DNA from: Craspedostauros australis
Lineage: Eukaryota
Assembly: GCA_030167865.1 (NCBI GenBank)
Contig: JALAGF010006287.1
Span: 1 to 64,000, forward strand
Reading direction: 5' to 3'
DNA: 64,000 nt
Positions 2,746 to 27,900 of this stretch are shown here, in pieces (positions within the stretch are counted from its first letter, which is position 1; each line of letters opens with the position of its first letter). Under the pieces are notes generated by a model. That model had not been told where the DNA came from, did no database searches, and was given only the letters and a program-made list of their open reading frames with translations. Position numbers and translations under genes: made by a program.

Positions 2746-3111
2746 GATATCAGCATAGCACTTCCCCGACGAAGGCACGCAACGGAAGATCGGCTGGAGC
2801 AATCCGTCAGTACAACAGCGATGTAAAATGTACAAATAGTTCATACGCTCGCGTGGCGAATCAAATCGGCACAAAAACACCTTCGCATGGTTCTGAGTGT
2901 GGTTACCGCGACCTTTAGCCGAGCTGCGCTCACATGCAATCATCATGGCATGATTGCACCATGGCGTGCTCAGACGACGACAGCGATGGCAGCATCTATC
3001 TGCAGACCGAACATCAGGGTCGTTGCCTTGCACGAAGAATGCGCCGAAGGGAATAATGCCATCCGCTTTGCCAGAGGATAGATCACGATGCACCGGGACG
3101 AACGTCTCTCT

Positions 3112-3113
<2 letters not shown>

Positions 3114-3142
<29 letters not shown>
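3114..3142. repeat. (GA)n microsatellite
   Basis: Read directly; similar GA/CT tracts near 6625, 39690 and 47500. Confidence 0.9.
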
Positions 3143-3146
<4 letters not shown>

Positions 3147-4997
3147 GGGCGGAGAGTTGATGGAGGTTGCTTTGTGATCGCCATCGAGGCCAGAGCAGAG
3201 TAGAAGTATCTGGAAGCATGCATGATCGCACTTGCGAGCAGGGTAAGGACACCCACATCGTGCAGGTTGCAACGAACTTTCTCTTTGCCGCTCAGGTCAA
3301 CCGTTGAATAGCCTGGCACTCATGCTTTCCTTTGCAATGTTTTGCTTGCTTCATGTGAAAGCGGAATGGACGTGCGTGTTCGGAACATGCGGTCCCAAGA
3401 TCCTTGTCAATTGCTTCCGAACAACTCTTCTGCAAGTGTGCTCGAGTACATCGCGGGTACAACTATGCACAGGTTCGCTGACACACAGAGCTGCGTGACG
3501 ACGAAGCTCGTTCGCGGCGCATGGGCTGACTTGCTCATACCCACTGGCGCTCGAAACGCATGTGCTCCGAGTCGCTTTGAGCCACGCCGATTCGGACACG
3601 AGCAACAGATCGATCAGCACATGGCGAGTGCATCTCCGTCTGCTGTACGAATCGATGAGAACAATGGGAGCTCCGCATAGAAGAGTAGAATAGGAATGGA
3701 ATAGTGATACTGGTGGCGAACAGGACTGGCACAACTCCAGCACTCCAGCACCCCCGCCACGCCGGCAATCCATTCCATACATGCAGTAGCACTACGGTCG
3801 CTTGATACTGACCGTGCTGAATGGAGTGCATATCATGGAGATGCAAGGTGAACAGCAACACCAACATCATGCGACGTGTGAAGCTGTGAGTACGACGGCG
3901 AAACTGTGCGAAGAATGGGTGGTGTGTGGCTTGCCTTTCACTTGGTAGCTTGGTCGCTTGGTTGATTGATCGTCGCAGAGTGTTGCTTGCCATCACAAAA
4001 CATTGCGAATTGTGGCGAATTGTAGCGATCTGTTTTGCTGTTCACTCGATAGACGAGAGTTGTCTCAACAAAGGACAACAAGTGGACATTGAGCCGAACA
4101 ATAGGGGACCAAACCACGAGCGTGCGATATTTGTAGCTATTCCACTTAGTGAGATCGATCGATTCAGTTCTTGATCTTGTTGCGCCTGTCGGCTGCAGTC
4201 ACCAATCAAAACACGCGGGCGTGACATCCAGTCATTCCTAATGTCGAACAAAACCAACGCCACAAATTCAACACACCACTTCACATCACATCACATGTTC
4301 TCTGTGTGGTGTCACTCCCAACACTCGTCTCATGGCCAATACTCAAACGATGTCGTTCATACCAGTATCAACAATCGGCACCGCTGGTACTATTAACAAT
4401 ATTAGCACTATTATCCCGTTTAGTACTGTTGGTGCTGTTGAATTGATGCTCCAATCCATCACAACAAACGATTCGCTGGAGTCTCGGCACGAGCGAAACT
4501 GGGGGTACGGGTGAGAAACAAGACCAATTGCCATGATGGATACATAATATGAGCACTCCAGAAGAGTGAGAGTACATACTAGTATGATCAAGTAGATGCA
4601 ACAGTCGGTGGATCACCCGCTCGAGCAAAATGCCATCAAGATGGATCTTGCTCTTGCAATCCGCAACCGATTGTAGTCCTGCGCCGACATGTATCTTGGA
4701 TTGGACTCAATTCGATGATCGATCGAGATGCGCCATGCACAAGCCATAGAGCAGTATCAGTCCTGTATACTCCTCCTGTACCAGCGAACGAGTGGAATGC
4801 AGGAATACATGAATGAGTGGAATGCGACCTCCTCTGGGGAGTGGATTCCATTCCATCCCTCGTCGTCTCTTCTCATCTCATAAAATCAAATCGCATTCAG
4901 CAACAACAATATCAGCACATCACAGCAACGACGTACTCGTACTCGCACTCGCACTCGCCATCAACACCAACGCCAACACCGACACGAGCGAGCAACC

Positions 4998-6618
4998 ATG
5001 AAACTTTCATCAGCCCTTCCCATCTTCATCGCAGTCATCGCGACTGCCTCAAACATCGCTGCATCGGCAGCAGACCATCATTCTGCCGTCGGCCGTGACA
5101 CCCAACATGACACCAAAGGACGCGCACTCAGAGGCGGTGCCCACACCAACAATCCTGCTCTGCATCATCATGATTCTCACACCAACGCGAAGAAGACCAC
5201 GCGTGGCGGAGATCGTCCAAAGAAGCATGGACATGGCAGCAGCCCAACCCACAACAAGCGCACCCACTCCATCAACGCCAACAACTATGAGACGCACATC
5301 GTGGGAGGAAACGAAGCGACGAAGGGAGAGTACCCAGAGTTCGTCCATTGGGCCGTGGGATGCGGCGGATTGCTCATCGCACCTGACATCGTCCTCACTG
5401 CGGCACATTGCGACTCCGATCAGACCATCAGGATGGACGCCATCATCAGCGCGTACGATGAGTTTGCATGGAACCAGCCAACAGGACCCAACGCACGCAA
5501 GATCGATGACAAGCGCGTCCATCCAGACTATGCCGCCACTCAGATCAACGACATCATGCTCTTCTGTCTATCCAACCCTGCACCATCCAATGTGTCCATG
5601 ATGAAGATCAACAGCAAGTTCGGCACTCCAGGCACGGACGGCTTGGGAAATCCGCAGACCATGACGGTGATTGGTTTTGGAGACACATCGGACGGTGGCT
5701 CTCCATCAGAGACTCTGATGGAGCTGGACATCCAGCAGGTCGATACTGCGTGGTGAAACGATCAGGACAGATACAACGGACAGGTCAGCGATGAGGCGGA
5801 GTTCTGTGCTGGCTTCGTGAAGGATGGTGTCCACCAGGGTGCCAAGGACTCGTGTCAGGGTGACTCTGGCGGTCCCGTGTTTGTGACTGAGGGTGGCGAG
5901 CGCGTTCAGGTGGGCGTGGTGTCTTGGGGTATCGGCTGTGCTCAGCAGCGATATCCTGGTGTGTATGCTCGTGTGAGCAACACGTATGAATGGATCAAGG
6001 TACGTACATCCGAGTAGGTGCATGCATGTCAATGCATGATGGAAGCATGATTGAAGTATGGTTGAAACATGAAAGAGTATGGTGAGTATGGTGAGTATGC
6101 AAAGATATATGGTATGATCACAGCAGCGAGCTCACTATTCCATTCCATTCCATTCTATTGTGCTTTTCCCCACTCTCCCAATACTCCTACACCCACAGGA
6201 GAATGCATGTGCCATGTCCAAAGTACCATCCGAGCTGTGTGGCACAGGAGGCGGAAACAGCGATGATGAGAATGACAACAACAACGGTGATGGTGGCGAT
6301 GATGACAGCTCCTGCATCCCTGTCACGTTGAAGCTCCACACCGATGATTTCCCAGAAGACACATCCTTTATGATGTATGACTCTCAAGATTCGAGCACAG
6401 AGTATTGGAATGAGTCTGGCTTCATTCGGTCCAACACTGAGTATCCTGAATACAAAGCATGCGTTCCACGTGATCGTTGCACTTACTTTGATTTCTTTGA
6501 TGCCTTCGGCGATGGCATCAGCGGAGACGGCTTCACGTTGACCGCCGACGGAAAGCAGCTGCACTCTGGTGGCAACATCGGATCGGAGGTGTTGAAGAAC
6601 ATTCCTGATGGTTGCTAG
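4998..6618 (+). CDS. Secreted trypsin-like serine protease (S1 family), join(4998..5999,6199..6618), interrupted by an in-frame TGA at 5754-5756 (pseudogene allele, error or recoding)
   Basis: Signal peptide [17 protein letters not shown]; His-rich propeptide; IVGG activation site; LTAAHC, NDIML and [11 protein letters not shown] catalytic motifs; [12 protein letters not shown] and PGVYARV. Intron GTACGT 6000 to CACAG 6198 joins WIK|ENACA in frame. Confidence 0.9.
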
Positions 6619-8012
6619 AGCGAGAAGAGAGAGAGAGAGAGAGAGAATAGAGAGGATGGATTGTGTGTGAGACAACAGAACGGTCTTTGTAATGCCAATA
6701 GCAACAGCAACGCCAACGACAATGGCAGCATTATGCAATCCTCCTCTTCCAAGTACGTGTGTTCCACAATAGAGTAGTCGTAGGAAAACCAATCGGAGCG
6801 TGGTTGCTCACACAACTCCAGAATGTAGGATCGTGTATCACAACAACCGTTGATTGCTTGTTGTGTACTCACGCGGATGCACCATCACCGTTCGAATTGT
6901 GGAGCACATACCGACGACCGCGGTTGCTTGCGCTGACGCGGGCAGAGGCAAAGCATGAGAGGAATGATAGGGTGTGCCAGATCAAGAAGGGAGGTGTTGC
7001 CACCCAATGCGCTGCGATGATGGCTGCTTGTGAGGAAGCGGGAGTTTGTTGTTATTGATGGATTGTGTGTGTGTTTGTGGGGAGGTTGGATGGGGGTGGT
7101 GGACAGTCAAGGCGGTGTGTGAAATGCCAGGACCATCCTTGTGGAGGACGTTGTGCAAGCACAAAGGGATCCTCCCCGTGTCAAAAAGTAGTTTCAACAA
7201 GTGTCGGGCGATGCCCGACAATACTTCGTTAAAAGATATTAGAACAGTTACTACACAAGATCAAAGCCAATAGGCGAAGAGAGATGGGTGTTAGAAAGGT
7301 GCGCACACGCACAGGCGAGGAGAGGAGTTGATGCTGTGTGATGCTCATCTCGTACAAATTCCGCAGAATGGGCGAGGCGCTGATGTGTGTGTCCCGATGG
7401 CGCTTTCCGACCACCTTTTTTATTGCGCAGTCTACCATACTTGCATGAGCACAGAGGATGCCGAAGGGAGAGGAATGAATCTTGTGCGCATGTTATGGGC
7501 GAAGATGGAGTTGCGAAGGTAGACACCCACGTCGGATGACTCGCGAGAGGGGCTTGGGTTGATGGACGGAACTGGAGTTGTGGAATGTTGGAGGAGGCGG
7601 AGAAGCGATTCGAAGTGATCAAAATGAGATCAAAGGAGGCTTGCCAAGCCCAACAACCGGTCAACAGACGAGGTAGAATACGAGGGCAGGCGGCACCAAT
7701 CCAACACCAACTGCTGATCCGCAGCATGGGTGTTGCGTATCATCCGGCAGACCGCACTGTGATGGTTTGATACAATTTCTCTACCCATCTTCCGATTTCT
7801 ACACTAATTTTCCATTTCCGGACATCTGCCTCTCGCGTGCTCTTGCTGTCTCAACGCCTCGACGTGGGCCTTTTCATATTGGTATCATGCGTGCATGTGC
7901 ATGTATGTGCGTACATGTGTGTTTGTGCGATACCCCGTCTCTATGTTTCCCTGGACTATCGACGGATGAAGCTGCCGCTGTTTCCCCTTCAGATCCTGCT
8001 TCGTCTCCTTTT

Positions 8013-9399
8013 TTACATGATGGCGCAAGGATTCGTGAAGCATTCTTCCTTGTTGGAACCATCAGCCCCGTCGGCATCTTCCACGATCACGGCAGCTCGA
8101 TCCTTACTTTCTCTCCGCGACATCGCTGATTCGTCAGTGACGAACGAAGCTATTGACGCGACAGTCTCTGCAGCCAGGGACTTTCGTTGCTCCAGCGCGC
8201 TGCGGGCAACCTTCGGTGTCTTCTTTGGTTTGGCGGAGACCTTTTTGGAAGTGGAAACGGCGCCAGCCGATGCTGCCGGTTTTGGCTTCTTCGGGCGTGT
8301 GGCCTCCTTCTTCTCTTTCCCTCCTTCCGAAGCAGCAGCTTCATCTGCGTCGCCTGCGAAAAATTCCTGCGATGATTCCATCACAGTTCCGATACTGGCC
8401 CTTGGGGTGGTGTTGAGTGACATCTCGGTTTCTTCCGAAGTGTCACGTTCTGACCGCGGGCGATTTTCCGGACCATACATCACACTCCCGTGGCTTTCGA
8501 TGCTCAATCCAGACGCAATGGAGCTGTCGCTCTTCGCCTTGCGCCCGCGACGGAAGACTTTTCGCAGAACAGCGCGTGGCGATGTCATGACGGATGATGC
8601 GTTGCTCATGGTGGAGATGTCATCGTCACTGTTCTCGGAAAATTCGTCGATGGCGCTGGGGACTCCGTCCGGGCCGATGTCGCGCGATGGCTTGATCCCG
8701 TTCCTGCGGAAGGAACGGCTCATGTATTTCTTGCCGCGGCGGTGGGAGATCTTCCATTCAGGGTGCCGCGATTCGACCATTCTGCGGATTTGGCCAAACG
8801 ATGGCATGCGCGACTTTGCTTCCCCTTGTCCGCTCGGTTTCGCGTTGGCTCGGAACTGTGGAGATGCATGCAGCAATCAATGACGATGAAAGGAAAGGAG
8901 AGATGACAGTTCGAAAGTGTGAGATGCAATTGATGACGCAAATGGATTCATGTCCGTGTGTACTATCTTCACATGCACGTTTGCAAGGTGCCTTGTCATC
9001 GTCGTGAGATTCTGAATCCGCCAGTGGGCAACATAGCTGATCCGATTCATCACGACCGGCTGTGCAATGGGAGAATCGGAGGCGATTCTCTGTGTCACGG
9101 CCGTCTCTCGATTGCCACATTTGCGAACAGGTGTGCTTTCTCAACATTATCATCACCGTCATCGAATGTGATGCACGATGATCCCAACTGTTGTTCCGAA
9201 ACGCAATCGCATCATGCGATGCCATCCATGGCTTGCTTGGTTTGTCACGTACAGTCTTGATTGCGGTGTGGAATGCTGCCGTGAGTTGCATCCCTGACGG
9301 CCGGACGACCTCGACGCTGGCGGCGGCGTTGTTGGGCTCCTTGGCAGTCGCCGGTGGCGCACGGCGATCGCTCTTGGAACGGAATCCAAACTTGCCCAT
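8013..9399 (-). CDS. Uncharacterised CaaX-terminated protein, short paralog (329 aa), join(9399..9253,8855..8013)
   Basis: Phase-0 intron GTACGT (9252) to CCACAG (8856) gives AIKT|FRANAK. Colinear similarity to the 14061-20686 gene. C-terminus EECFTNPCAIM*. Confidence 0.8.
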
Positions 9400-12037
9400 C
9401 TTGTTGCCTTTCCTGAATGCTTTATATTTTTATTTGAATGTGTTTGAATGTCTTTCAATGTGCTTCAATGAAAGGACGGTGTGTCTCAGTGTCTTTGTGG
9501 TGGAGTATTTGCGTTCACTTCGCTTGGTGCGCGCTCTGATCGACTTTTGGTGTGCTGTTGATGAGCAATGAAAATGATGATTCAGGGTGATGCTGGGAAT
9601 TGTGGCTTTGTGTGGTGGTGTGTGGTGGTGTGTCATGGGTGTGGTGTGTTGTTTCTCACCGGCTCGGCGACACCAACAATGATGGTGGCAGCAACCACTC
9701 GCTCAACGCGTAACGCACAACGCAGGCACCGCCAACGATCAACAAATCGTTCCATTCTGCCTCCGAGTACCCGTGACTGTACCCTCGTGGCTGCTCTCTG
9801 TCGTTTTTCTCACCGTGCAACCTTGACACCCTTTACGGGTTGTTCTCGCGCGTTGTTGCGAATCCTTCCCACAACCGTCCACAATCGTCACGCCACAACC
9901 CTTCCCAGCCAACGGTACGGACACGCGACGGGATTGTTGCGACGGCAACGACGAACAACAAGCAACTCGGAGGGCGATTGATGCACCACGATCAGACAGC
10001 AGATACGCCCAAATGGACAACGAACCTCTCCTGTGATGTGTTTGATTGGGCAACTCCGCCACCCACGCGTAAGTCTCAACATTCTCACGTGTTCTGCTCT
10101 TTCGCACGAGAAGTGTTGATGCAACTGAGAAACTTGTTCGATGTCTCGCCACGGCAATGACAAAAAATCCAATAGCCCCTTGTCAATCCCGAATATCAGT
10201 GGTTTCAAGCCATTTTGGTCGATCGAGTCAAACACCCGTCGTGTTTCGAGTTCGTCATGAGAGAGCGATGAACGGACCAACCGAAGAAGCACAGACGTGA
10301 TATCTGATACTTAGAATTCCGAACGACACAGATAAGATGCCAGAAGGTCCCAATTGACACAGGCACGCAACAACGAGTCTCACTTTGTCGCCAGGCATCA
10401 TCGGCGCAGCATTGCCTGCAACTCGGCGTGGCGCTGCGCGGTCGGCCAGCATCAACATGAGCGCCACGGCATTACCATTGTCATCACAAACGCGATCACA
10501 CAGACCAACTGGACAACTGGACAACAAAGCAGCAGCATCGCTGACAGAGTGCGCAGTTCGGCCATGCAAAGCTCAATGGAGTATGATATTTCCAGATGGC
10601 CGTTCAATGGATCATGGCGCACCCGTGGCAAGAGGCGATGCTGTCTTCCTTTCTCGGTTGCCCCTTGTGTTGGTTATTCCTCCTTGGCCTTCTTGATCGT
10701 GAAGTCGTTCGCCACAATGCAAAATAGAGTTGGTTGGAGTAGGATAGAGAAGAGTTGAATACCTCCACACGCTTCTCAAGTCCGGAGTACTCTTCGGAGC
10801 AAGACAATTTGGTGCATCTCGGCGGATCCATACTCGCACATCCCGTCAGCAATCCCGCTCACTGCAACCAACTCCATCCTTGTTTGTACCATACGTAGAT
10901 ATGGCCAGCGGCATCGGGTGCCCACTACCATTGCGAGGTACTGATGCGTTCATCCGCGCGGGGCATTCGGAGATAAGGCAGTCCGTGTGGCAATCGCTTT
11001 CAATAGCTTCGGTGGATGAAGAGCTCATCGATTTCACGTGCGAACGAGGGGTTTCGCTACTCGTGCATACGTCTACTCCTGATGCACATCTTCGTCTTCA
11101 CATTGCCGCTGTCGCTGTAGTCATCTTGTGAAATCGAGTGGAGACTGGCTCCATATCGAATTCTACCCCCACGCACCCGTCTCCGCCGTGGTGCATCCAG
11201 GCTATTTCGTCATGAGCAGCAATACATCTTTCCTGTGTGCGCTGACTTGAATGGGATAGAGAAGACGAGAGCAGAACACAGTAGAGTAGTGGAGAGTAGG
11301 TCGCTCTATTGGTTGGGAGTAAGTTGGCAGAGTATGGCAAGAGTAGGTGTGGTAACACGCTCGCCCAACGAGCGGATCAGCACTTGGATCGGTTGGCACG
11401 ACACATGCTTCGTGGGCACTTTCTTTGTGACGAAAGAGCGCGCAATGGCGAAGCCTGTCCTGTCCGCAAAGTTGGCAAGCGATGGAACGAGCGGGAAATC
11501 TCGGCAGATCCATGGTGCGCAGGCAGCATTGGCGACTAACTCTCCCAAAAATGCTCCAGTTTGTGCATCGCCACACTCCAAAGACCACAACCACTCACAA
11601 AGGCTCAACGTTCAACCTCGCCGACCACACACTCCGACAACAACGAAAGCGCTCAAGCAATCTTCGATCCTTCAAGATGATGGTGCCGAATCGGCAAAAC
11701 GACGCCCAAGGGAAGCACGAGAGGACCGAAAGTGCCCCAGCGCTTTTGATGTCCGTATCTTCTCTCGTCGTCATCGGAAGATGATTGGCGATCTCTCGTG
11801 GTCACCACTGATCCAACTGTTGTCAAATCCTTTCAGGTGACACCACGGGGAACAGAGCAAACAGAGCCAACCATGAAGGATGGCTGATTGCGACTCAGCT
11901 TCCGTCGTGCTTTTCCACTGCAAATGCCAGGAAGTCGTCCGCTCCTCGATTCTTCATGTATCTCATCTCACAAATCCAAGCTCGACACAAAGAAAAAGCA
12001 AACACATCAACAAACCAACCAACAGCAAGCTTCCACC

Positions 12038-13417
12038 ATGAACTTCCGCAAGGCCACTTCCTTCATCGTCGCTGCCATCGCCATGGCCGCCCACGGCGCC
12101 ATGGCTGCGATTGGCGATGACTACATCGACGCCGTCCCTGCCACTGTCTACGAGGCCGCCGATCTCTCTCCACAGAACATGGACTACGACAAGGCCAACA
12201 AGAAGTTCATCGCTCACGGAGGATGGTACAACAACCGCCTCATCCACTACTACAAGTTCCGCATCTTCGCTCCAGGCACCTACCCAGATCTCATCAAGGG
12301 ACCACCAAACATGAGCCCAGCCTCAGATGTCCCAATCCAGAAGGTCATGATGGCAACCACCACCGGAGACTTCACCGGTGTTGTTGGAAAGCCAATCCTC
12401 GAGTTCCACACCAGCAATGGCAACTCTTATTCCGACTTCATGAACGTCAAATTCGTCATGGTTGATGATACCTATGTTGCAGACACCTTCAAGAGTGCCG
12501 GGGATGTCATCACCAGTGGCAATACCCTCAAGGAGACCGACATCATCATGAACTTCCCGGTCGTCCCAACAGGATCCTCCCTCCAGAGCCCAGTGGACAA
12601 GGCCGCAACCGCCCCCATCAAGCCCATCACCGCCTTCTACAAGGGACAGGAAGTTCAGACCTTCATCTTCGAGGTCAACAATCAGGCTGCCTTCGACTAC
12701 TTCAACCCCAAAACCCGTGATCAGCCAAACGATGCCGACTACGCCATCCCAGTCGTGACCACCTTCGCCAGCAAGACTGCCGTCACATCCATCCCACTGT
12801 GGCATGTGAACCAGTTCACCCGTGGTGTGTCCGCTGAGAAGGGCAATCAAGGCGGACCAAGCGATGCCGGTATGCGCAATCTGATCAACCTCGACCGTCC
12901 AGATGTGGGATACTCTCCATTGTGGCAGCTGTTCTGGGTCACTGAACTCCCAATCGACTACTTGGCCGATCAGATTTCTATCAACACCGAGCTTACTGCC
13001 GCCAACGGAGCCGCCTTCATTCCAACACCGATGTATGTCAACTGTCCAGATGTTGGTCCAGTCGGCACCGCCGACAACGCAGACCGCCAAGAAACACACC
13101 AGCTGAAGCTCGATCTCGCCCAGGAATCCAACTTCGTGCTTGGATCTCATGCGGACTTGCTCTTGAAAGAAGGATTGGACGTGAAGATCACCACCGAAGA
13201 TGGCACCAAGGTAGCTGAGGGAAAGACCAATATCATGGGAGCATACGAGATTGAGGTGAAGTCGTCTGACATCCCGGATGGCACCACCAAGCTCAAGGTC
13301 ATGTACGGAACCAAGGACATCCGCACGCTCGAGGTTGAAGACACCTCTTCTGATGCATCCAGCATCGCCATTGGCATGAGCATGGCCGCAGCCATGCTGG
13401 TTGGAACGCTCATGTAA
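12038..13417 (+). CDS. Secreted, probably GPI-anchored cell-surface protein with a two-fold internal repeat (459 aa)
   Basis: CCACCATG start; signal peptide MNFRKATSFIVAAIAMAAHGAMA; strong C-ending codon bias; intronless; C-terminal small residues then hydrophobic tail (SSDASSIAIGMSMAAAMLVGTLM*). Confidence 0.88.
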   Translation: MNFRKATSFIVAAIAMAAHGAMAAIGDDYIDAVPATVYEAADLSPQNMDYDKANKKFIAHGGWYNNRLIHYYKFRIFAPGTYPDLIKGPPNMSPASDVPIQKVMMATTTGDFTGVVGKPILEFHTSNGNSYSDFMNVKFVMVDDTYVADTFKSAGDVITSGNTLKETDIIMNFPVVPTGSSLQSPVDKAATAPIKPITAFYKGQEVQTFIFEVNNQAAFDYFNPKTRDQPNDADYAIPVVTTFASKTAVTSIPLWHVNQFTRGVSAEKGNQGGPSDAGMRNLINLDRPDVGYSPLWQLFWVTELPIDYLADQISINTELTAANGAAFIPTPMYVNCPDVGPVGTADNADRQETHQLKLDLAQESNFVLGSHADLLLKEGLDVKITTEDGTKVAEGKTNIMGAYEIEVKSSDIPDGTTKLKVMYGTKDIRTLEVEDTSSDASSIAIGMSMAAAMLVGTLM

Positions 13418-14060
13418 ATACATGACTTATTCGCAACATGCAGTCGATTTCTCAAGAGCGGACATTCAACAAATAATATAATAGAATCGTATTATGTACA
13501 AGCACGAGTACCATGCTCTGCACAAGGCCAATCCGAGCACAGCACGACAATAACTCATTTGGAACATCAATAGTTTTGTAACTCCAGCCCTGTTCAACCA
13601 CGACGCAGATGGGTTGTTGTCCCATGTACCCGATGACTCGTCCTGAAACAGAGAACGCTCAGATCGCACAGCCAAGATAGGCAGCACAAGCACTCACAAT
13701 AGTCAACAATCTTGTTGAGCACACTCATTGTCTCTATCAGCAAAGGCTTTGTGTGCGGAGCACGTTGAATAGGATGCATGGTCTCATCACAATCCTCATT
13801 GTCAAGTTTTTGTGAAGAACTCCGTTTTTCGGTTTCCTCTCAGTTCTGATACGCAGCGCAGCACCAGCGTAATTTTCGAATTCGCGTGGGAGAAAAGTGT
13901 GCTCTGCGATCTGCTCGACTTTGAGTAGATCGTAATCTGCTCGTGCATGCTTTGACTGCAGTTGCGATGGAATCTGATGTGTTGTGTAATTTAACGGGAT
14001 ATTCCTAACAAAGCACATTATTATTCTACTCCGGGTGGTGCTCCTCTGTGCCACTCACTA

Positions 14061-17000
14061 TTACATGATTTGGCATGGAGCTCCAAAGCATTCGCCCTTT
14101 CCTGGGCGCGAAATGAAGGCCTCGGTGTCGTCGTGGTAGTCGTACGCATTGATGGCTCGGTCTGTCTGATGCACATCACGCGTCATGGATGCTTCGGTCA
14201 CGATTTGCTTGTCTTCGTTGATGATGGAAGCGTCATCACCACTGCCGTCGGCATCATGGGCATCATCCGTTGGAGCTTTGGATGCTGGCTGGATGGTGGC
14301 CTCCGTGTCCATGACGAGCGCGGCCATTTCCGCAATGATCGAGCTTGCGCGTTCCCGTTCCTCTCGGTTTGGGGCATCAGCGGCGGAAGCAGTTTCGCTC
14401 GTGGCATCCTGGTCTTCGTCTTCGTCAACCTCTGCCTCTCCATTGGCATCCTGGCCCACGCCTGTATGGTCACGCACGATACTCTTGTCTTGCGATGTCG
14501 GCGTTGATGCCTTCATTGGTTGTTCAGACGCTTCCAAGCTTGCGCCTCGTTCGAGGACTCTTGCCAGCTCCATTTCCTCGTCGCCTTCGTCTTCTTCGGA
14601 GCTGCTGGCAATTGTCTGTGCTTGTGGCATGTCCTCCTCTTGGGTGAAAGACTGGAGCAACAGAAGCCCACGCTCAAGAGCTGCTTCCTCGTGTTCCTCG
14701 CCGCCTTGATCTTCTTCGGAGCTGCTGGCAATCGTCTGTGCTTGTGGCATGTCTTCCTCTTGAGAGAAAGTTTGGAGCAATAGGAGCCCACGCTCAAGAG
14801 CTGCTTCCTCATGCTCCTCTTCTCCAGTACTGTCAACGGCAGCCGACTCTGCTGCTGGCATGTCCGCATCCGTGTCCTGGGCGAGGCTCTCCAGCAGCAT
14901 GAGCGCACGCTCAAGCGCTGCCTCCTCGTCTTCTTCCGTCCTGGCAACCTTCAGAGCAGGCATCTTGACTTCTTGTTCCACTTCTGGTTCGGATTCATCC
15001 TCTCGTTCGACATCCGGCTGCTTCGTTTCTTGTGGTGCGAACTCGTCGGTCCCGTTGTCCGACCTTGCGTCTTCGGTCGGCACGGGCGCAGTCGGTGATT
15101 CTGCGTCATCTTCTGGCTCGGACTCTGCAGCGGATACAAAGTCCTCCAAGGAATCAGCCTCGACGTCTTGGCATGGCCTGATCTCCTCCGGCAAGTCGAG
15201 CGCACGTGCTGTGGCATCGATAATTTGCGCAGCGTCAGTGTCATGCCCGGTCTCGAGCATTTGAGAAGACTGGAATGTCTCTGTAGACTTTGAGTCGACT
15301 TCGGCGTCGCGGTCGTCGGGCCCTTCGGAGCTGACAGATGGCTCTGATTTCAAGGCATCCACAATCGCTGTCAGCTGCTCGGCTTCTGCGACGGAATCCT
15401 CGGATACGTCGTCGTCATCATCAGCTTCGCCATCGACATCATTCTCGCGGTTGTCCGGCAAAGGATCTGCGGAGTGTTGCATCGCCCCGTTAGGCATATC
15501 CATACACTCATCGCCAGGCCATGTGTCTCGCATGAGGCTTGAAGCGGATGCGGGTGAGACCGAGTCATCGTTGTCTTCGTTGTCTGCAGGTGTTGCAGAG
15601 TCAAGGAGCATGATTGAGTCGATTGCCTCCTGGTTGGGATGCTCCTTCAGCTTTGGCTCCAGCTCGGATTCTTCCACGTTCCCTTCTTCACGTTGGTCAT
15701 CCGTGGTGTCAAGAACCGCGGCCCCTGTTGCCGCAACCGCTGCAACTCCGATCAGCGCTGCTGTGTTAGCATGCTTCTCCAAACCTGCGACGTCATCGTT
15801 TTGCTTGTCGTCGCTGTCGCGAATGGTGGCTTCGTCTTCATCTTCGTCAGACTTCACGGCCAGTGGGGCATCCTGCAGAGCCATGGGCACAGCACCTTCC
15901 TCGTTCACGACTGGACGTCGCTCATCCTCTCCGGATGGAACGGTGTCCGCATCGAGAACGGGCTGGGACTCCAAGCCTTCATCGACTTGTGATGTCGCTG
16001 CTTCCATTTCAGTGGCATCGTCATCCCCATTCGCATCATCCTTGATATCCTGCCCGATATCCGATTCTGCGTCTTCGAAGATCTCGATGGAAGATGATGG
16101 CTCCAGTTCGCCCTCCAACTCAGGCCCCGAGTCTTCACCGTGGTCGAACAGTTCTCGTTGCAGAACGTCGCCCTGCTGTTCATCAACACATTCTGCCTCC
16201 TGATCCACTTCAGGTGCTTGTGGCATGCAGGCAGCGATGGCGACCTCTGATTCGGTCACAGCAACCGTCTCTGGCTGGGTGAATGACGCCGGTTGCTCGC
16301 CCAGTTCACCATCGGCTGCGACTTCGGTCTTGTCGTAGACTTTGGCTGCCGCCTCCACATCGTCCTCGAGTTCGTCGTCGGGGATCTCTTCTGCTTCAGC
16401 TTCCGCCTCCGACTTGGACAATCGCTCTGGTTGCGGCACCTCCTCACCTTCGACGGCCGATGGTGTTTCTGAGTGTTGGCTGAGATTCCTTGTCAGCATC
16501 GTTTCAGCTGCAAGGATCTCATCGTCCTGCGGTTGTGCCCACGATATGGAGTCTTGCGCAAGGCCTGGCTGACCCGTAATCGATTCTGCCTCATCCTCAT
16601 CTTCGTCTGAATCAACTGCGTCCTCCAGATGTCCCTCTGCGCCCAAGGCTCGTCCAGAGTCGAGTTCCGCTGACGACGCAAGTTCAAGCACTGCTGTTGT
16701 GGCTGCAGATGTCTTGATTGTGTCATCAAACTCTTCCATCGGTTCTTCATCCAGATCCTGATCCGCAAAGACGGGGTCTCGCACAGCTGGTTCTGAGGAG
16801 ACGTCAAATTCGCGCATGGTGATGGAGCCTTGCATGCTGTCTCGCTGTGACGCGCCAACTAACAAGTCTCGGCTCGAATCGATGTCGGCCTCATTCTGGA
16901 GATCGGATCCTGTTGTCACATCATCTGCGTCGTGTTCTTGGATTATGGCTGCGCCGGCGGCCAGGGCCGTCGCAGCACCGATGACAGCGCCGGAATCGGT

Positions 17001-20000
17001 GAAGTAATCCTCCTCCTCTTCTGGCTCGTGGCCTTCGATGCTTCCATCGTCGTAGGATTCAATGTCATTCCTGAGGATCATGTTTTCCCATGAGTGTTCG
17101 GGTTCCAGTTCGGGCTCTGAGTCCACCTCATCTGCATGGCCCAGCAGATCAGTGATGGTGATTGGATTGGATCCACGTGCGGGCACCTGATGGGACGAGG
17201 CGAACATCTCGGCGTCCTGCTCGGTTCCTGAAGTGGCTATCGATTCGTTGTCGTGCTGCGACTTCATCATCGATTCCAGGTCTGCGTCCTGCTCCAGATC
17301 GGTTTCCACTTGTCGGAAGGTTGTGCTGTGTAGCGTTTCGTCTGCCTCGTCGCGTGCTGAGATAGTTGCGAGATCAGACGCTTGCTTTGGTGCAAACGGT
17401 GGCTGAAACGATGACATGTGTGCTGATGCGAATTCCTCGACAAGGTCGTCATCTTCGTCTGGAACTTCATCAGATTCCATGCCGTCCACAAAGACGGACA
17501 GCTCTTCTCGATCAGGCATGATGACTTGGTCGATAATGATGTTGGTTTCGGCCTCTCGCTCCACCGCATGAGACTCGAGTTCGATGAGCTCGTCCGCATC
17601 TTGTTGGGACCCATTTTCGGAGACAATGTCTGCGTCGTCCATGGATGCTTCGTCTTCCTTGTCCTCGTCATCATTCTCGTCTTCGTCTATGCTCGCACTC
17701 ACGAACGCAGATTGCGTGGAAATAGACGGCTCCGGTGCTTCCTCCGGCTCGTCTTCGTCTTCCAGTTGCTCCTCGTCCTCATCCAAACTTGCACTGACAA
17801 ATGCAGATTGCATGGAGACGGAAGGCTCTGGTCCTTCCTCCGGTCCATCTTCGTCTTCCTGTTGCTCGTCGTCCTCATCCAAGCTTGCATTGACAAATGC
17901 AGATTGCATGGAAACGGATGGCTCCGGGACTTCCTCCGGTTCCTCTTCCTCCTCCTGTTGCTCCTCGTCCTCATCCAAGCTTGCATTGACATATGCAGAT
18001 TGCATGGAAACGGATGGCTCCGGGACTTCCTCCGGTCCCTCCTCCTCCTCTTGTTGCTCGTCCTCTTCATCTTCTTGTTGGTCTTCTCCTGCCACTGCGG
18101 CTGCTGCGGGGTCCGGCAGTGCCAGCGACTTGATTTCGTGCCCCAGCACCTTCTCCGGTCGCTCTTCAGCAGGTTCAGCTCCCGCCTGTGCACCTCCGCC
18201 GTCTTCCAACTCGGAGTCTTCATCAACCATCTCCTGCAGGGCTATGTCTTGCTCCTCTTCCGATGGTGCGAGATCGTACATGGTTGTTGCTGCTGACACA
18301 GCGGCCTCCAGGGGATCAGCCCGTGATTCCGTATCTGGCTCGGTCGGTGTTTCTTGTTGGTCGGGCACGGGCACGGGCGTGGACTCGGACATGACGGCGT
18401 CGGTGTCGAACGATTGGTCCATTCCCAACACGTCTGGCTCGGGCTCTTCGTCTTCTCCTCCGGCCTGTTCTGATCCCGCGGTCATCATTGTATCCGCTTC
18501 CGATGAAGCATCTGGATCAGCGGCGGACTCGGCCGTTTGTTCCGTGTCGGTGACTGGCGGAACTCCTGACACTACTTGGAAGGAGTCTGACGCCGGCTGC
18601 GTCTCCAGCACGGTCGTCTCATCCGCATCATATTGCGTGCCGCTGCTATCGTCGTCGTTTTGGTCCTGCTGTTGCAACGTTGTTGTTGCCGCTGCCTGGA
18701 GGTCCTTCGCTAGGATGGGCTCTATCGCAGCCTCGTTGTATGGCCCGGAGTCAGCGTGCTGTTGTTCTTCGTCGTTGTCTTCACTATGGAACATCGCAAG
18801 TGCAGCGAGGTGGTCAGCTGGTGCAGTTGCTGCATCAGGTGCCTGCTCCTTCTCCTGCCCTTGGTCTTCTTGTTCCTCGTCCTGTGCTGGGTTCGAGAGG
18901 CGTTCCGTCTCTGCAAGCGATTCGGACGTGGCCTCGGTCTGAGAGATGTGCTCGGGGTCGAGCTTGACGATCGCTGCCGGTGCGACAACAGCTGCTTCTT
19001 CTGGTTGTGGTTCCGCATCATCGGCTTCATTCTCGTCTTCGTCGACCTCAAACTCGATGTCGGACGTGGTTTGCGAAACAGATCTGCTGGCCAATGTCGC
19101 ATCTGCTTGTGCATCATTTGCTTCCGCTGGCTCAGCAACGAGCGATGGTGCCTGTTCGACGACTAGGTCGAGTTTGGCATCAACAGCATCAAGATCTTCT
19201 GGTCTCGCGTCAAGGTCTGCGGCCGGGTCTGAGACCAGCGGTTGTGGCTTCGTGAGTTGTTCGGTGTTTTGCTCCGAAAGTTCCTCTTCGGCTGGCATGC
19301 GGTCGAGCTTCATGACGTGCTCAGCATCCTGATGAGTTGATGCCTCTTGCACCATCTCCGTGCTGTTGCCTTGCCACTCCTCTTCCTCCTTGAGGTCAGC
19401 CAGGTGAATGTCGCTGCGAACACCATGGCCTTCTTCATCTTGATCTTGATCATCATCGTGTTCCTCCGCCTTTTCAGATTCTTCGTCCACCATGACATCG
19501 GCTCCGGTTCGCATCATGGCAGCCGTTGCAATGCCGGCTCCAAGCATCTGTGGCAGGGAGAGGGCGGAAATCTTGCGCTCCTCCTCTTCATCGCGCTCCT
19601 CCTCTCGGTTTTCCTCCTCCTCGATGACATCGACCTCCAGGTCCTGCATCCTCGATATGCTGGCGGCAGGGCTGGCGAATCCGGTTGCACGGTCCATTGC
19701 ATCCATCGCATCCGTCGGTGGGGGGTGCGGGGCGCCTTGCGGTGAGAGCTTGGTGGTGTTGACGCGCAATGGGCTCTTGTGCATGCCGGGGCTGGTATGC
19801 GCATAGTCGAATGTCCTCGGACTGCCTTGCATCCTGGGGCTTCCATGCCTCTTGGGACTGCCGTACCTGTTCGGAGTGAGCGGACTGTCCGCGCCAGTGA
19901 AACGCTGCGAACGCGGCCGGTTTTCGGGCCCGTACTGCGGGCGAGGCGAGACGTGACCGCCCCCAATGACGACACCCGTGAGGTTTTTCGGCTTGCGTTG

Positions 20001-20686
20001 ACGGTGGAAGACGCGGCGCAGCACGGCGCGCGGTGACGGGATGTAGGAGACGGTGCTGACGGTGGAGATGCTATCGTCGCAGTTCGATGTGGAATCTCCG
20101 CTGACGCTGCGAGAGCTTCCCATCATGCGGACACCACGTGGTGGACCATCGCCATTGCGAAGGGCGCGGCCCAGATGCTTCTTCGCACGGCGTTCCGAAA
20201 CCCTCCAGTTGGGATACTGCGATCCGATGATCTTGCGGATTTCGTTGACCGTTGGAACGGGAGCTTGTTCGGCGAGATCATCCCCGTTGTCCAATCGGGC
20301 GTTCTTGTACTGTTGTTAGTGGACCATCGAGATGAATGATCCACAACAATCATATTATGTGATACAATATCACGAGCATTTGGGAAAGAAACGACAGAAG
20401 AAAGAGAGAAGCGTGAGCGTCTAGGCTGGTGCATTCATTTCGAACTCCACTCCGCTCCGCTCCGCTCGACGCTCAACTCAACTCGACATAGCTGGACTGG
20501 AAATCAGGAACGTACCGTATCCAATGCACCCTGCACTGCCAACTGCAGCTGCTGCGACGTCGGCCGGATGATCTTGACACTCGCGAAGATCCCATCGATC
20601 TCGCTGTCGTGTTCCGACGGAGGGGCTGGTTCTCGGTTGGAACCGAATCCAAACCGCTTCTTCAGCTTCGGCTTCACCTTGCTCAT
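14061..20686 (-). CDS. Uncharacterised giant acidic CaaX-terminated protein, long paralog (about 2,139 aa), join(20686..20516,20309..14061)
   Basis: 2,077-codon ORF; phase-0 intron GTACGT (20515) to CTAACAACAG (20310) gives ALDT|YKNARL. D/E-rich low-complexity body. C-terminus GECFGAPCQIM*. Confidence 0.87.
14560..14935 (-). repeat. Coding tandem repeat, 120-nt/40-aa period (EEHEEAALERGLLLLQxFxQEEDMPQAQTIASSSEED), 2 near-perfect plus 2 degenerate copies
   Basis: CTTCTTCGGAGCTGCTGGCAAT recurs at 14591 and 14711. Confidence 0.85.
17670..18065 (-). repeat. Coding tandem repeat, 96-nt/32-aa unit x4 (PEEVPEPSVSMQSAFVNASLDEDEEQQEEEEE)
   Basis: Equivalent positions at 17689, 17785, 17881 and 17977. 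Confidence 0.9.
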
Positions 20687-21919: not shown

Positions 21920-24900
21920 TTAAAACAGCACCAGCAACTCGAGCAGAGGTGAGTTCGGATCGCCCATCAGGCTGTTCCCAGACTCGTCCTTGCTGTATGG
22001 GCCGTTCCACGTGCTCGCGCCTTGTCGCAGGCTGCGCCCCTGCGGCTTCTGAGATTTGGTCAGCTGAGAATTCTGCGTCGATGTCTGCGCCTGCGCCTTT
22101 GGCTGCGTCTGCGATTGACGAAGCTGAGACGGCTGCGATTGTGATTGTGATTGCGACTGCGCATTCGACTGCCGGGCGCCATTGGCTCCGCCAGTTCGCG
22201 TGCTTGGTACAGATGCCTGCTGCCGACCCCCTCTATGCATCAGTGAGGTCGTCGCTCCGGACGCTCCGCTCGTCTCGGCTGCGTTGGACAAGGAGAGGTA
22301 GGCTTGCGCAAAGATGCAACGGATGCTGCTCCATGCAAAGCAGCTCCTCGCCACGTTGTTGCTTTCTGCACCCTCCAAGGGATCGTAAACAACGATCGGA
22401 TCGACTGTTAGCATCCCCGTCATGGGGTCGTACGAGCCGGCCGACTTGCGCTGGATGTACGGCGACAACGGCGAATACAGCTTCCCGCCGCTGTAGTCTC
22501 GCTCGTGCTTCCCGGAGTAATCAATCGCGGTCGCCTGCGAATCAAAGTGCTGTCCGTAGAAGAGCAGAAAGTGCATCAGCAGCTTCCCGGACGTTGTTTC
22601 GCCAGAACACAGCACTTCGATCACATCGTGGAAACCCTGCGGAAAGACCAAACCGTTGTTGACCAGAGAGGCATCGAATGCTGCCGGCTGATGTCGTGGA
22701 AGCGGCGGTTTCGGAGTCTTCGATTGGGCCTGATGCGAGGACGCTGCTGCCGTTGTTGCCGCCGCGGTTGACCTGCGTCTTGCCTCCCCATCTCTCGCTG
22801 CACTTGCTTGTTGGGCGGCATGGGTTTCGGTGACGAGCTTCGGTGATTTTGAGGTGTCTGATTGATTTGGGGCTGCTGCTGTACCAGAAGTTGATGGCCT
22901 CATCGCATGTGCTTGTGCTGAGTTCGTTTGCGGCGACGACGCAGACACAGCCGGATTGGACGATGATGCTGATGCTGATGATGGTGCGAGCGGTGCATTT
23001 CCAGACATTTGTTTCTTTGAGTTTGTGAGTGTGGACTTGAAGATGGCGCTTGGCGTACTCGTACCTGGTCTTGGCTTTTCCCCAGCCTTGTTCATCTCTC
23101 TGCTGGCTCCTTCACTGGGCCGTGGCTGAGACACAGCAGAAGTAGCTGGTGCTGCAGACGTAGACTTGTCAGGCTTTGCATGAGATGGCTTCCCCATCAT
23201 CACCTTTGATGCGAAGGAACCCTTTGCGACCGCATCTGCGAATGAGTTCACCTTCTTTGGAGCAGGTTGGGCCTTATCGGCGTTTTGACCAGCAGCCGCG
23301 GATTGGTCTGCCCTCGTCTTCCCTCTAGTAGTTTGTGCGGAAGGTGCGGACTTCGATGCAGTCGGCTTCTTCGCGATGGATGCCCAGGACGAGGTAACTG
23401 GCAACACTGCTTTACCTGTTGATCTTGGCGCTCCCTTTCTTGCAACTGCCGCAGCAGTGGTAGACGCCTTTGCTGTGCCTGCTGGTCCGGTTGCGGATGA
23501 TGGCGCCGGTGTCGACTTTCTCGATTGCGCATTTTTCTGAGTAAGCTGCGCTTGGCTTGCAAACGTCTTTCCAGCCACAACACCACTAGTTCCTCGCCTC
23601 GTATCGGCTGCTGCATTTGATTTTGCTTCCACTTTCGGCTTCGTTGATGAATGTCGTGAACGCACCTGTTGAGGTTGAGGTTGAGGTTGGTGCTGTTGCT
23701 GTGTGGACAACGACGTCTGTTGTTTGCTGGATGCAGAACCTCTGGTTGCTTGCGCAGTGGCTGGTGCTGGCTTTCCCTTCGCTGGTCCTGTTGTCTGCGT
23801 CGCCGCTCCGACAGCATCAGACGCCGATGCGGCCAGTGACGAAGATGGCTTCACTTTTGCTGCCTCGCGTTGCTCCCTTGCTTGCCCAGTTGGTGCAGGG
23901 CGCACAGTCTCGGCAATTCTGTTGCTGTTGCCACTGCTGCCGTTGTTGGACGCAGCGACGGAAGCCACCGTTCGTTGGAATCCAGTTACGCTGACCCCTT
24001 CTGCCACAAGCCGTCTTTGACGCTCGACCCTTTCGAGCTCCTCCCGGATGACTGACCGTTCTCGCATCATGGAAACGACGAGCAGGAGCAAAGCGTAGCT
24101 GCTGAGACCGCCCGAAAACGGCTCGTTCAGTCTCCGTTGCGCCAACAGCTCCTTCAGTACCATCAACGTTTGAACAGCGGGGGTGTCCTCCGGTCGCAGG
24201 CCTGTTTGGATGCAAACGTCTTGCACAACTCTCGTCGAGAACTCGGTGGAGCCAATGCCACCATGCTCGGGCCCTTGGAATGTGATGTCCACCTTCAAGA
24301 GGCCATTGACGACATCCGCACCGCGCCAAACTGGCGGAGTCTGTGTGGAATGGAACAGCGATGAATGTTGATGCGAACCCGATGTTTCCAAGTGCTCACC
24401 GCCACTGCTGTGGCCTGGCGCTCCGACTTGATGGTTCACAGCACCTTCCTGCCCAACCATCCAGTTGGGTTTGCCAGTGGCGGAGGCCAGTCGCGCTGGG
24501 TCGGCGAGAATCTTCACAACAGGAACTGTCGCTGTTGGGATGGGCTTGACTTGCACTGCCCATGGTTGCGCCTCCAACTCTTGCGCCAAGCGCAGCACTC
24601 GCTCACCATTCGTCGTCAGACCCCCCATCATCATGACGGGACTCATGTGTCGATGCTGAGGAGGGTGTTGATGGTAATAGTTTTGTGTCTGCTGTTGCAT
24701 GCGATGGTGGTGATGCGAGTGATGTTGCTGCTGTTGTTGTTGCTGTTGCTGGTGCGTAGGTGAACCATCGAGCCTCTGAAAGTTCGGATTGCCGCTCTCC
24801 ACCGAGCTCGTATCAGAAGCAATTGTGCCACCTCCGGTGGCCACGGATCCGCCAGGATGATCGCTCGTCTGGCTGGATGGTACACCAGCCATATTCATGT

Positions 24901-27900
24901 GTTGCAAGTGCATGCTGTCCAAGCCGCAAACCACCACATCCAAATCAGATGAAGGCAGGTCGAGCTGGGTCGCGCAGCTGCCGTACATCTCGACGGAGCA
25001 CATATCAGGCCAGATCCCCTATTGTGATGTCGTTGCGCAAACGTAGAGCAAAGTCACGAGCATGTAGATCGCCGGTAGCGTTGTCAATGGAATTGTGGGA
25101 AGAAACATGAAACCGGAATGAATGTGAGGAAATTGTTGAAACCGCGTCATCCTTTTGACTTCAACAAGCTTTTTGCGATGGATTCGTGTATGCGCACGCG
25201 CACATCCTCAAGCAAGCAACAGAAGGACTTACCGAGAGCGTCTCCTCAAGGGCGATCAACACAGAGTTGCGCTCGGACCGACGTAGCTGCAGCGCGTGTG
25301 ATCTACGACGCATGAACACCGTCATGTCCCGAGTCAAGCGGTCGCAAACATCCAACAAGTGATATCCAACATCATTCTCGTCGACGGCCGACGATGACAA
25401 ATGATGGCGACCTGAATGCGGTGCATCAAGGCTGGAGGCAACGGACGACCCGGCGCTGTTGGCATTCTCGGGGCTCAGCAGGGTCGGCAGCGGCGGCGAG
25501 GCTGAGGACTCGTTCTGTGTCTCAGAGATTGTCTTCTGCGTCCTTGGCCGCTGGTGATTGGCGCTGTCGCCAAGACTCGAGTCGCTCCTCACGATGTTGA
25601 CTTGCTGCTCATTCGGTTTGCTGACCTTCGGTTCCTTGGGCACAACGCCGTTGGTGGTCATGGAATTGGTTGATACAGCAGAGAGTGTTTCTGGCACAGT
25701 CGTGGTCGTGTTCTGATCGATGCTGGTTTGCGCTGCCTTGTCACGCCCAAGTCTTTTTCCATCGTTTCTAGGCTTTGGCGATACGTGAGTGCGCCTCGAG
25801 GTGTCTCCAACGGCAGACTTTTTGGGGAGCACGCTGATGGGTTTCCTCGCGGAAGGAGCGGCACCATTGTTGGATGTTCCCAATAGCACGTCGCGCAAGG
25901 TCCCTTCCTTCGGTGATGCTGAAACCGAAGTAGAACCAGACCTTCGGGACACGGATTGCTGCATGGATGACGGCTTAGCACCACTTCCTGAGTTGCGGTT
26001 TTCAAAGCGAGATGGAGCAGGCCACCGACTGGAGGTTGGGAGTCCAGGGGCGTCTCTTCTCAAGGGCTGAACACGTCGCCGCTGGACTTCGGTGTCTACA
26101 GCATCAAGCACCGTCGAAAGGATCTCCCTTGCCATCTTGCGATTCGCGGTGCTTCTGCGTGCAGCGCGGCTCCGCGGTGTCTTCGACTTCTTCCCACCGC
26201 TCGAATTGCTGCTGGAACCGAAGCTCTGCTGGTTGCCGAAGCGGACACCTCCCGACTTCTTGCGGTTCTTTGATCGTACTTCAACCGTCTCCCAGGCGTC
26301 GTCATTGTCGTCGCCGTCGTTCGCTGGAGCTGCTGCTGCTGGCGGTGATGGTACGGAGGTTGGTGACACGCTGCTGGCTGCTGTCGCGTCAGTGCTGTTG
26401 TGGGCGTCGCCCTTGGGTGCGCGATATGGTGCTGCAGTTGTGTTCATGTTCCCGCTCGCCGGACTCTCTGATTTCGTGGAAACATCAGTCGTCACTGACG
26501 CAATCGATTTCGCATCCTGCTCGACCTTCGCATCAATGTGACCGGCATCAAGAGACGTGGAGCTTGCTCTGTCGGACCGGGCATCGTCACGGCTGGCGTC
26601 TGCTGTGCTGTCGCTTTCGATTGGTTGCTGCTGTGGTTGCTGTTGCTTGCGAGATGCTCCAGGCATGTTCGATGCCACACTCTTTTGAGCTTCGTGTGTC
26701 GATTTTGACTTCACGGTGCCAGCGTGCGTATCACCCGATGAAAAAGCACCCTCGATATTCCCCAAGGACACACGAACCGCCGTCGCATCATCTTTACCAT
26801 CGTCAGCTTGCGAAAACTTCGACAGGTCCTCCAGAGATGTGTTCGACGCACCCAATGATACGTCTGGACTTGTCTGTGTGGATGCATCTGCTGTTGAGTT
26901 TTTACGCTTCTGTGAAGACATAAACATCGTGCATAGAACAACAAGACAGTTAGTCAGTGAGTATGGCCAATAGAGCAGAGTATCCGAAGTTGACAAACTG
27001 ATCGCAATCTCTTCGATCCGTCACAAGCATGCATTGAGCAGACCATCACAATCCGCGCAAGCGAAAGAGCGCAGTACCATTCTCCAAGAGGTGTACCAAC
27101 ACCGGAAACCTTGTTTCGTTTCGTTTCCTTTCATTTCGTCTTGTACTCGTAGACTGTAGACGAGACCGAAATCATCGAGTCCACGTCGAGAAGCAATTAG
27201 CGGAGCAAATGAACCGACCAACTCTTACCTTTTTCTTCTTGTTCTTCCTCTTTTTCTTCTGCGAGTCGTTGCCTTCAGCAAGTGTCGCGGCAGCCGCATC
27301 GATCACAGAAGCCGGAGTTGCGCTGACGGTCACTTTTGAATTTTGTGCCGCAACGTCAATGATCTCCGGTCCGGTCTTTGGATCATCGGTGGGGGGATTG
27401 ACGACATCTTTTTCCACGGATGTCGACTTCGTCTCAGCACTTGCTTGAACGGGTTCCGGATTATTGATGTCGGCGACACTGCAAGTAGATGCCTGTTCCG
27501 TCGTCGCTGTGGTTGCTGCTTCTGCTGCAGCCGATGTGTTCACTGCTGCGCTTGGCATCGGCGAAGCAGTGATGCCAGCAACAGTGGTCGAAGGCAACGC
27601 AGTGCCAGGTGTCGCAGCTGTCCATGTTGCAGGACTTTCTTCATCAGTGGTGGCGTTCAACGATGATTCTGGTTGTAGTTTGTTGTCGAAACTCGTCAAT
27701 GATTGACGAAATGAGTCGTCCCACCGATGGAACAGTGCGGTCGATGATGGAATCCCAAGCGACAGCCAGCCCGCGAGCCGAGTGACTGGACTCAGGAGAA
27801 GATCCTGAATACTGACCTCGATCTCGATGGTGGACGGCGTCGATATTGGCTGTGGCAAGGCAGCGGGAAGTGAGACATTAGCCGAAGCAATGCTACCGCC

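Follow-up and report, generated by a model that had tools for sequence, protein, structure and literature searches.

The question posed by this locus is what kind of protein keeps the same two ends while the chain between them varies greatly in length. In the first 64,000 nucleotides (nt) of contig JALAGF010006287.1 of the Craspedostauros australis assembly GCA_030167865.1 (this whole stretch is referred to as the window), two minus-strand genes, here called A and B, encode products of 329 and 2,139 amino acids (aa), respectively, by two-exon models drawn from the sequence only. Both products begin with a small predicted helical head and end in a CaaX box preceded by a second Cys, and we found relatives with the same ending outside the locus. 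We rate at roughly even the chance that these proteins form a small diatom family of adaptors attached by lipids to the cytosolic side of a membrane, through prenylation and probably S-acylation; that the CaaX Cys is prenylated, taken as a claim by itself, we hold with high confidence. The gene models are as follows:

9253..9399, minus strand: gene A exon 1, 49 codons
8856..9252, minus strand: gene A predicted intron, 397 nt, GTACGT..CACAG, phase 0
8013..8855, minus strand: gene A exon 2, 280 aa and stop
20516..20686, minus strand: gene B exon 1, 57 codons
20310..20515, minus strand: gene B predicted intron, 206 nt, GTACGT..AACAG, phase 0
14061..20309, minus strand: gene B exon 2, 2,082 aa and stop, a single open frame

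The phase-0 intron with a GTACGT donor that the original prediction ascribed to both same-strand genes was borne out: the donor follows a Thr codon in A and in B, both introns run from GT to AG, and both joins keep the frame open. The guanine-plus-cytosine content of gene B exon 2 by codon position is 0.71/0.42/0.59.

A small family with a conserved double-cysteine tail

A two-sequence profile was searched against 1.84 billion representatives and gave three matches, one of which, an unrelated repeat protein, was dropped. Three proteins outside the locus were assigned to the family. In P0002 (426 aa, Stauroneis constricta by source label) every block is present, from the exon-1 helix and the P-x-W-x4-RR-x-KK core through the basic SPRA block and the YGP block to the tail. 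P0003 (173 aa, represented by three near-identical sequences) and P0006 (174 aa) begin at helix 2; both have the core and the tail together with a block that is basic and contains Phe. The members thus range from 173 to 2,139 aa. Such searches are shallow and lose members, and one of them missed P0003. Within the genome, queries with either exon, with the core helices and with an outside relative scored A and B and no further family locus. The family was rightly described beforehand as unnamed: no member matched a Pfam family at cut-off, NCBIfam, a PDB sequence or the ESM Atlas, and a literature search at the level of titles and abstracts, supplements excluded, returned no account of it.

The tails of the two genes lie at these positions:

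8016..8045, minus strand: gene A tail, Cys at -9 and CaaX box CAIM, the only two cysteines of the protein
14064..14093, minus strand: gene B tail, Cys at -9 and CaaX box CQIM

The tail common to A and B reads ECFxxPCxIM. A CaaX box with a nearby second Cys, as originally proposed, was confirmed in all five members (CAIM, CQIM, CTIS, CVIL and CIIL, with the second Cys at -8 or -9) and in more than one organism, and these two cysteines are the only ones in three of the five proteins. Among 1,804 stop-terminated frames of at least 30 aa in the window and five loci, this ending occurred in five, and only A and B exceeded 70 aa.

The ending had been read as a farnesylation signal, which fits the members ending in Met or Ser. 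Two relatives, however, end in Leu, so the lipid is not always farnesyl; under the rule for the X residue given in PMC8393718, Leu favours geranylgeranyl and Met or Ser farnesyl. The CaaX Cys would be farnesylated in the former members and geranylgeranylated in the latter, and then methylated. The genome encodes the beta subunits of farnesyltransferase (E 4e-76 to PDB) and geranylgeranyltransferase I (E 3e-38), an ICMT-family protein (E 3e-23) and 20 matches to DHHC acyltransferases; the prenylation-enzyme search covered the beta subunits and the ICMT family.

The last 25 residues have a net charge of -2 to -5 in all five members, with no basic patch near the tail, and the conserved second Cys is therefore likely to be the second membrane signal, which S-acylation at -8 or -9 would provide. 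The arrangement is that of the H-Ras and N-Ras anchors, where a Cys precedes the CaaX box by four or five residues and a polybasic second signal is lacking; in those proteins the nearby palmitoylated Cys is also needed to reach the plasma membrane (PMC8393718). The family differs from them in having no GTPase domain and in a predicted prenyl type that varies among members (Met or Ser versus Leu). An S-acylated tail would favour stable residence at a plasma or post-Golgi membrane, as in H-/N-Ras and paralemmin.

Conservation between A and B and contig coverage

The A and B proteins share an N-terminal block of ~190 aa and aligned with 35.8% identity over 201 residues (E 3e-31). Their N-terminal alignment scored 289 and that of their last 12 aa 43, scores reached by none of 200 shuffles in either case (maxima 61 and 31, respectively). 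Over 181 aligned codons, identity at the three codon positions was 0.54/0.66/0.47, and different codons stood behind 34 of the 71 identical residues. Conservation therefore acts at the protein level, and since the second codon position is the best kept, we read the pair as an old duplication held at that level. The conserved blocks were mapped as follows:

9253..9303, minus strand: gene A helix 1 of the head (aa 33-49), end of exon 1, by homology to the P0002 model
8715..8804, minus strand: gene A head helices 2-3 (aa 67-96), with invariant P, W, RR, K and R
8445..8582, minus strand: gene A basic SP block (aa 141-157) and YGP block (aa 176-186)
20516..20566, minus strand: gene B helix 1 of the head (aa 41-57), end of exon 1
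19902..20255, minus strand: gene B head helices 2-3 (aa 76-105), basic SP block (aa 149-165) and YGP block (aa 183-193)

The N-terminal, SPRAVLR, YGPENRPRS and tail motifs listed in the original prediction were all present in A and B, the first and last of them surpassing every shuffle as given above. The helix placed just before the tail fared less well: its motif is present in both proteins, but the match was marginal (equalled in 29/200 and 7/150 shuffles), and it is absent from the Stauroneis constricta protein, where the best score was reached by 359/500 shuffles.

The stretch was present in no run recorded as RNA. Coverage came from X1, one run of assembled contigs whose RNA nature is guessed. 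An X1 contig of 1,105 nt on 7760-8855 begins at the predicted acceptor of gene A (8855), takes in the CaaX codons and the stop and continues for 253 nt; it fits the gene A model, short of proof of splicing. For gene B, X1 contigs lie on 14069-14628 and 18986-19173. No read or contig crosses either intron junction and none spans gene B, as would be expected if the locus were an artefact or a dead copy, with a tail that arose by chance or a long exon of gene B that is misassembled or untranslated. We give this explanation very little credence, as it is opposed by the protein-level conservation, by the same tail in three outside proteins and by an open 6.2-kb frame with repeats in multiples of three.

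A predicted helix-turn-helix-like head

The AlphaFold model of P0002 has a three-helix, helix-turn-helix-like head with a predicted local distance difference test (pLDDT) score of 85-96, while 272 of the 426 residues score below 50; the protein is accordingly predicted to be disordered outside the head. The intron of A and B splits this head after helix 1. The head had been called basic, which holds for the net charge of four members (+12 to +18) but not for the Stauroneis protein (0); nor is the head simply basic, being a predicted folded three-helix domain.

In a Foldseek search with the head model, the top row was the DEK C-terminal domain 1q1v (67 residues, 22% identity, E 0.49, not significant), whose three-helix arrangement resembles that of the model, and most top rows were DNA-binding helix-turn-helix or winged-helix domains. 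A DEK C-terminal likeness had been suspected ahead of the fold prediction. The DEK C-terminal profile (PF08766) gave no Pfam score for the members, in which a long loop splits the domain, and the head profile matched the two weak DEK_C-like stretches of the genome with a probability of 0.5%, the profiles being very thin.

These folds raise the alternative that the proteins tether chromatin to the inner nuclear membrane, with a DNA-binding DEK-C-like or helix-turn-helix head, a basic block that directs import and a prenylated tail, as in Drosophila Kugelkern and the lamin tail. A nuclear localization signal (NLS) with a CaaX box can act at the nuclear membrane, and Kugelkern itself consists of a coiled coil, an NLS and a CaaX box (PMC2947476). 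Kugelkern and B-type lamin tails further resemble the family in being mostly unstructured and in carrying a farnesylation box, a cluster of basic residues and short conserved stretches (same source). Three [ST]PxK/R sites follow the head of B, and by pattern search P0003 and P0006 have bipartite NLS-like spacing and A and P0006 the monopartite K(K/R)x(K/R) pattern. The same pattern search, however, found the monopartite form missing from B, P0002 and P0003 and no NLS pattern at all in B or P0002, so a canonical NLS is not conserved across members, and the fold match is weak. The family also differs from Kugelkern and the B-type lamins in its predicted head and in lacking a visible coiled coil; no member had a Pfam match to the lamin rod or the Ig-like lamin-tail domain, and the model is disordered past the head. 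A lamin-tail search of the genome gave no match, which speaks for such a tether. This does not establish that lamins are absent; ochrophyte lamins are reported as very divergent (PMC5630835), and diatoms are unmentioned in the main text of PMC5630835 and of PMC4448529. On balance we consider a nuclear tether unlikely. Its more specific form, in which a diatom-specific family replaces lamin and Kugelkern and an arm of ~100 versus 1,900 residues between a DEK-C-like DNA-binding head and a prenyl and acyl tail sets the distance from chromatin to envelope, strikes us as quite doubtful.

The linker between head and tail

The original prediction gave the spacer as about 100 versus 1,850 aa, and from the YGP block to the pre-terminal helix it does measure 90 aa in A and 1,851 aa in B. 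Its further claim, that the spacer is acidic in both copies, failed for gene A, whose residues 187-304 contain 15.3% D/E and 17.8% K/R, including a Lys-rich patch, and are neutral (net charge per residue +0.025). Residues 194-2114 of gene B contain 28.7% D/E at -0.239 per residue. Across the five members the linker spans 46 to 1,921 aa, differing ~16-fold between A and B, and is net acidic in four (-0.12 to -0.24 per residue). Two in-frame repeats lie in the acidic arm of gene B:

17676..18071, minus strand: 96-nt (32-aa) tandem repeat, 4.1 copies, 86% matches
14574..14936, minus strand: 120-nt (40-aa) repeat, two close copies plus part of a third

If the head and the tail attached to two structures, linker length could set the gap between them, short with A and long with B. 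Such a ruler would account for ends that are conserved around so variable a middle, for the prevailing acidity, which favours an extended chain, and for the 2,083-codon frame that gene B has kept open. The neutral, Lys-rich linker of A weakens this idea of a tunable acidic ruler, and part of gene B's length comes from the in-frame repeats, which look recent (86-89% matches). Searches for orthologues of the long form, against which the conservation of its length could be judged, came back empty (one limited to 91-2,000 aa, and two others), and no second attachment site is known. We regard a measuring role as distinctly unlikely.

The ~1,900-aa polyanion of gene B might instead be the working part, binding cations or polyamines, crowding, or condensing at a membrane, for instance on the cytosolic face of the silica deposition vesicle, with the head and tail serving only to target it. 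D and E together make up 27% of protein B, each 100-aa window of which carries a net negative charge from residue 201 onward, and the organism is a diatom, as silicon transporters match the genome at E 3e-247. This proposal leaves the four short members unexplained. The N-terminus of gene B has no visible signal peptide, so by its sequence the protein would not meet silica directly. We judge this role improbable.

The acidic arm of gene B also contains Ala/Gly-rich hydrophobic islands at aa 304-322, 1163-1181 and 1574-1592 (Kyte-Doolittle 1.3-1.8), which might touch a membrane or serve in self-association. In A, P0002, P0003 and P0006 no 19-mer exceeded a hydrophobicity of 0.85.

A proposed lipid-anchored adaptor and its known counterparts

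Under the favoured reading of a membrane-anchored adaptor, the head, with its predicted helix-turn-helix-like fold, and the Phe-containing basic block might bind a partner, either a protein or an anionic lipid, and the Ser-Pro site before the basic block might put this binding under kinase control; we put both of these steps more tentatively than the lipid modifications. The linker would do no more than keep the head close to the membrane; it would be free to drift in length and charge, and in B it would have grown partly by in-frame repeats. Such a protein would work like paralemmin or MARCKS while being unrelated to either.

The closest architectural counterparts are the paralemmins (PALM1-3 and palmdelphin), acidic, Cys-poor chains in which conserved cassettes are joined by poorly conserved linkers and a CaaX box is preceded by upstream cysteines (PMC2148134 and PMC3405040); paralemmin itself is at the plasma membrane and carries its prenyl and palmitoyl groups in a cysteine cluster (PMC2148134). 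Its type of acidic body fits four of the five linkers, but not that of A. Paralemmins are vertebrate proteins with an N-terminal coiled coil (~105 aa) and an 11-residue motif, whereas the family here has a small predicted three-helix head. No Pfam paralemmin match was obtained for A, B, P0002, P0003 or P0006 (E up to 1-10), the 11-residue motif not being compared letter by letter, and the likeness is one of architecture, with no sequence relation.

GAP-43, MARCKS and CAP-23 are named as paralemmin-like (PMC2148134, in its abstract). No sequence relation of the family to these three tested positive. All three are lipid-anchored proteins with an acidic disordered body and, close to Ser sites, a short basic block that contains Phe, as in the family. 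They are acylated at the N-terminus and are not known to have a folded head or a CaaX box.

Several points weigh against the adaptor reading. The a1 residue of gene B's CaaX box is Gln and not aliphatic, and the structural neighbours of the head are mostly nucleic-acid-binding folds, which a cortical adaptor does not need. The family counts only five distinct members, and two of them, P0003 and P0006, may be incomplete gene calls, perhaps of the second exon alone. The likeness of the basic block to MARCKS is presumed. Finally, the Ala/Gly-rich stretches of gene B (up to 1.76, aa 1574-1592) could enter the membrane.

Gene order and neighbouring sequences

A and B had been described as a tandem pair. 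This was contradicted by the gene between them:

12038..13417, plus strand: unrelated gene, 459 aa, hydrophobic N- and C-termini, outside the family

Because of this intervening gene the pair is clustered, not adjacent. The gene is a single exon, and its product starts like a signal peptide and finishes in a hydrophobic C-terminus that, as judged by eye, may be of the glycosylphosphatidylinositol type; it had no Pfam or NCBIfam match at cut-off. The X1 contigs over it differ at ~5% of letters, hinting at a close paralogue or allele.

Upstream of gene B on the minus strand, 21920-25018 is an open frame of 1,032 aa in which a weak match to a poly(A)-polymerase-like palm, below cut-off at E 2e-5, is broken up by a long stretch rich in Ala, Ser and Gln. 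It is followed by long minus-strand frames of 619 and 678 aa at 25161-27020 and 27172-29208, respectively, with no Pfam or NCBIfam match. Elsewhere in the genome, the silicon transporter family gave 92 matches, of which ~9 are near full length and many are partial or have internal stops, either a large expansion or many assembly fragments. At locus L006 (G000:C6545), positions 2598-8711 on the plus strand form a 2,037-aa frame with ~10 copies of a short domain and no evident protease domain; the domain is reminiscent of the cathepsin propeptide inhibitor I29.

Significance for the family

At present the family is uncharacterised, with a familiar anchor. That anchor is of a known kind, but the family itself and the pairing of such an anchor with a helix-turn-helix-like head appear to be undescribed, and the title and abstract search turned up nothing on diatom structural proteins anchored through a CaaX box. 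With the same ends and an ~16-fold difference in linker length, A and B offer a natural experiment on whether a disordered linker sets distance. If the proteins act at the cell cortex, they would be a new and unrelated solution to the design of paralemmin and MARCKS; if they act at the nuclear rim, they would be a first candidate for the chromatin anchor of a diatom genome where lamin was not detected.

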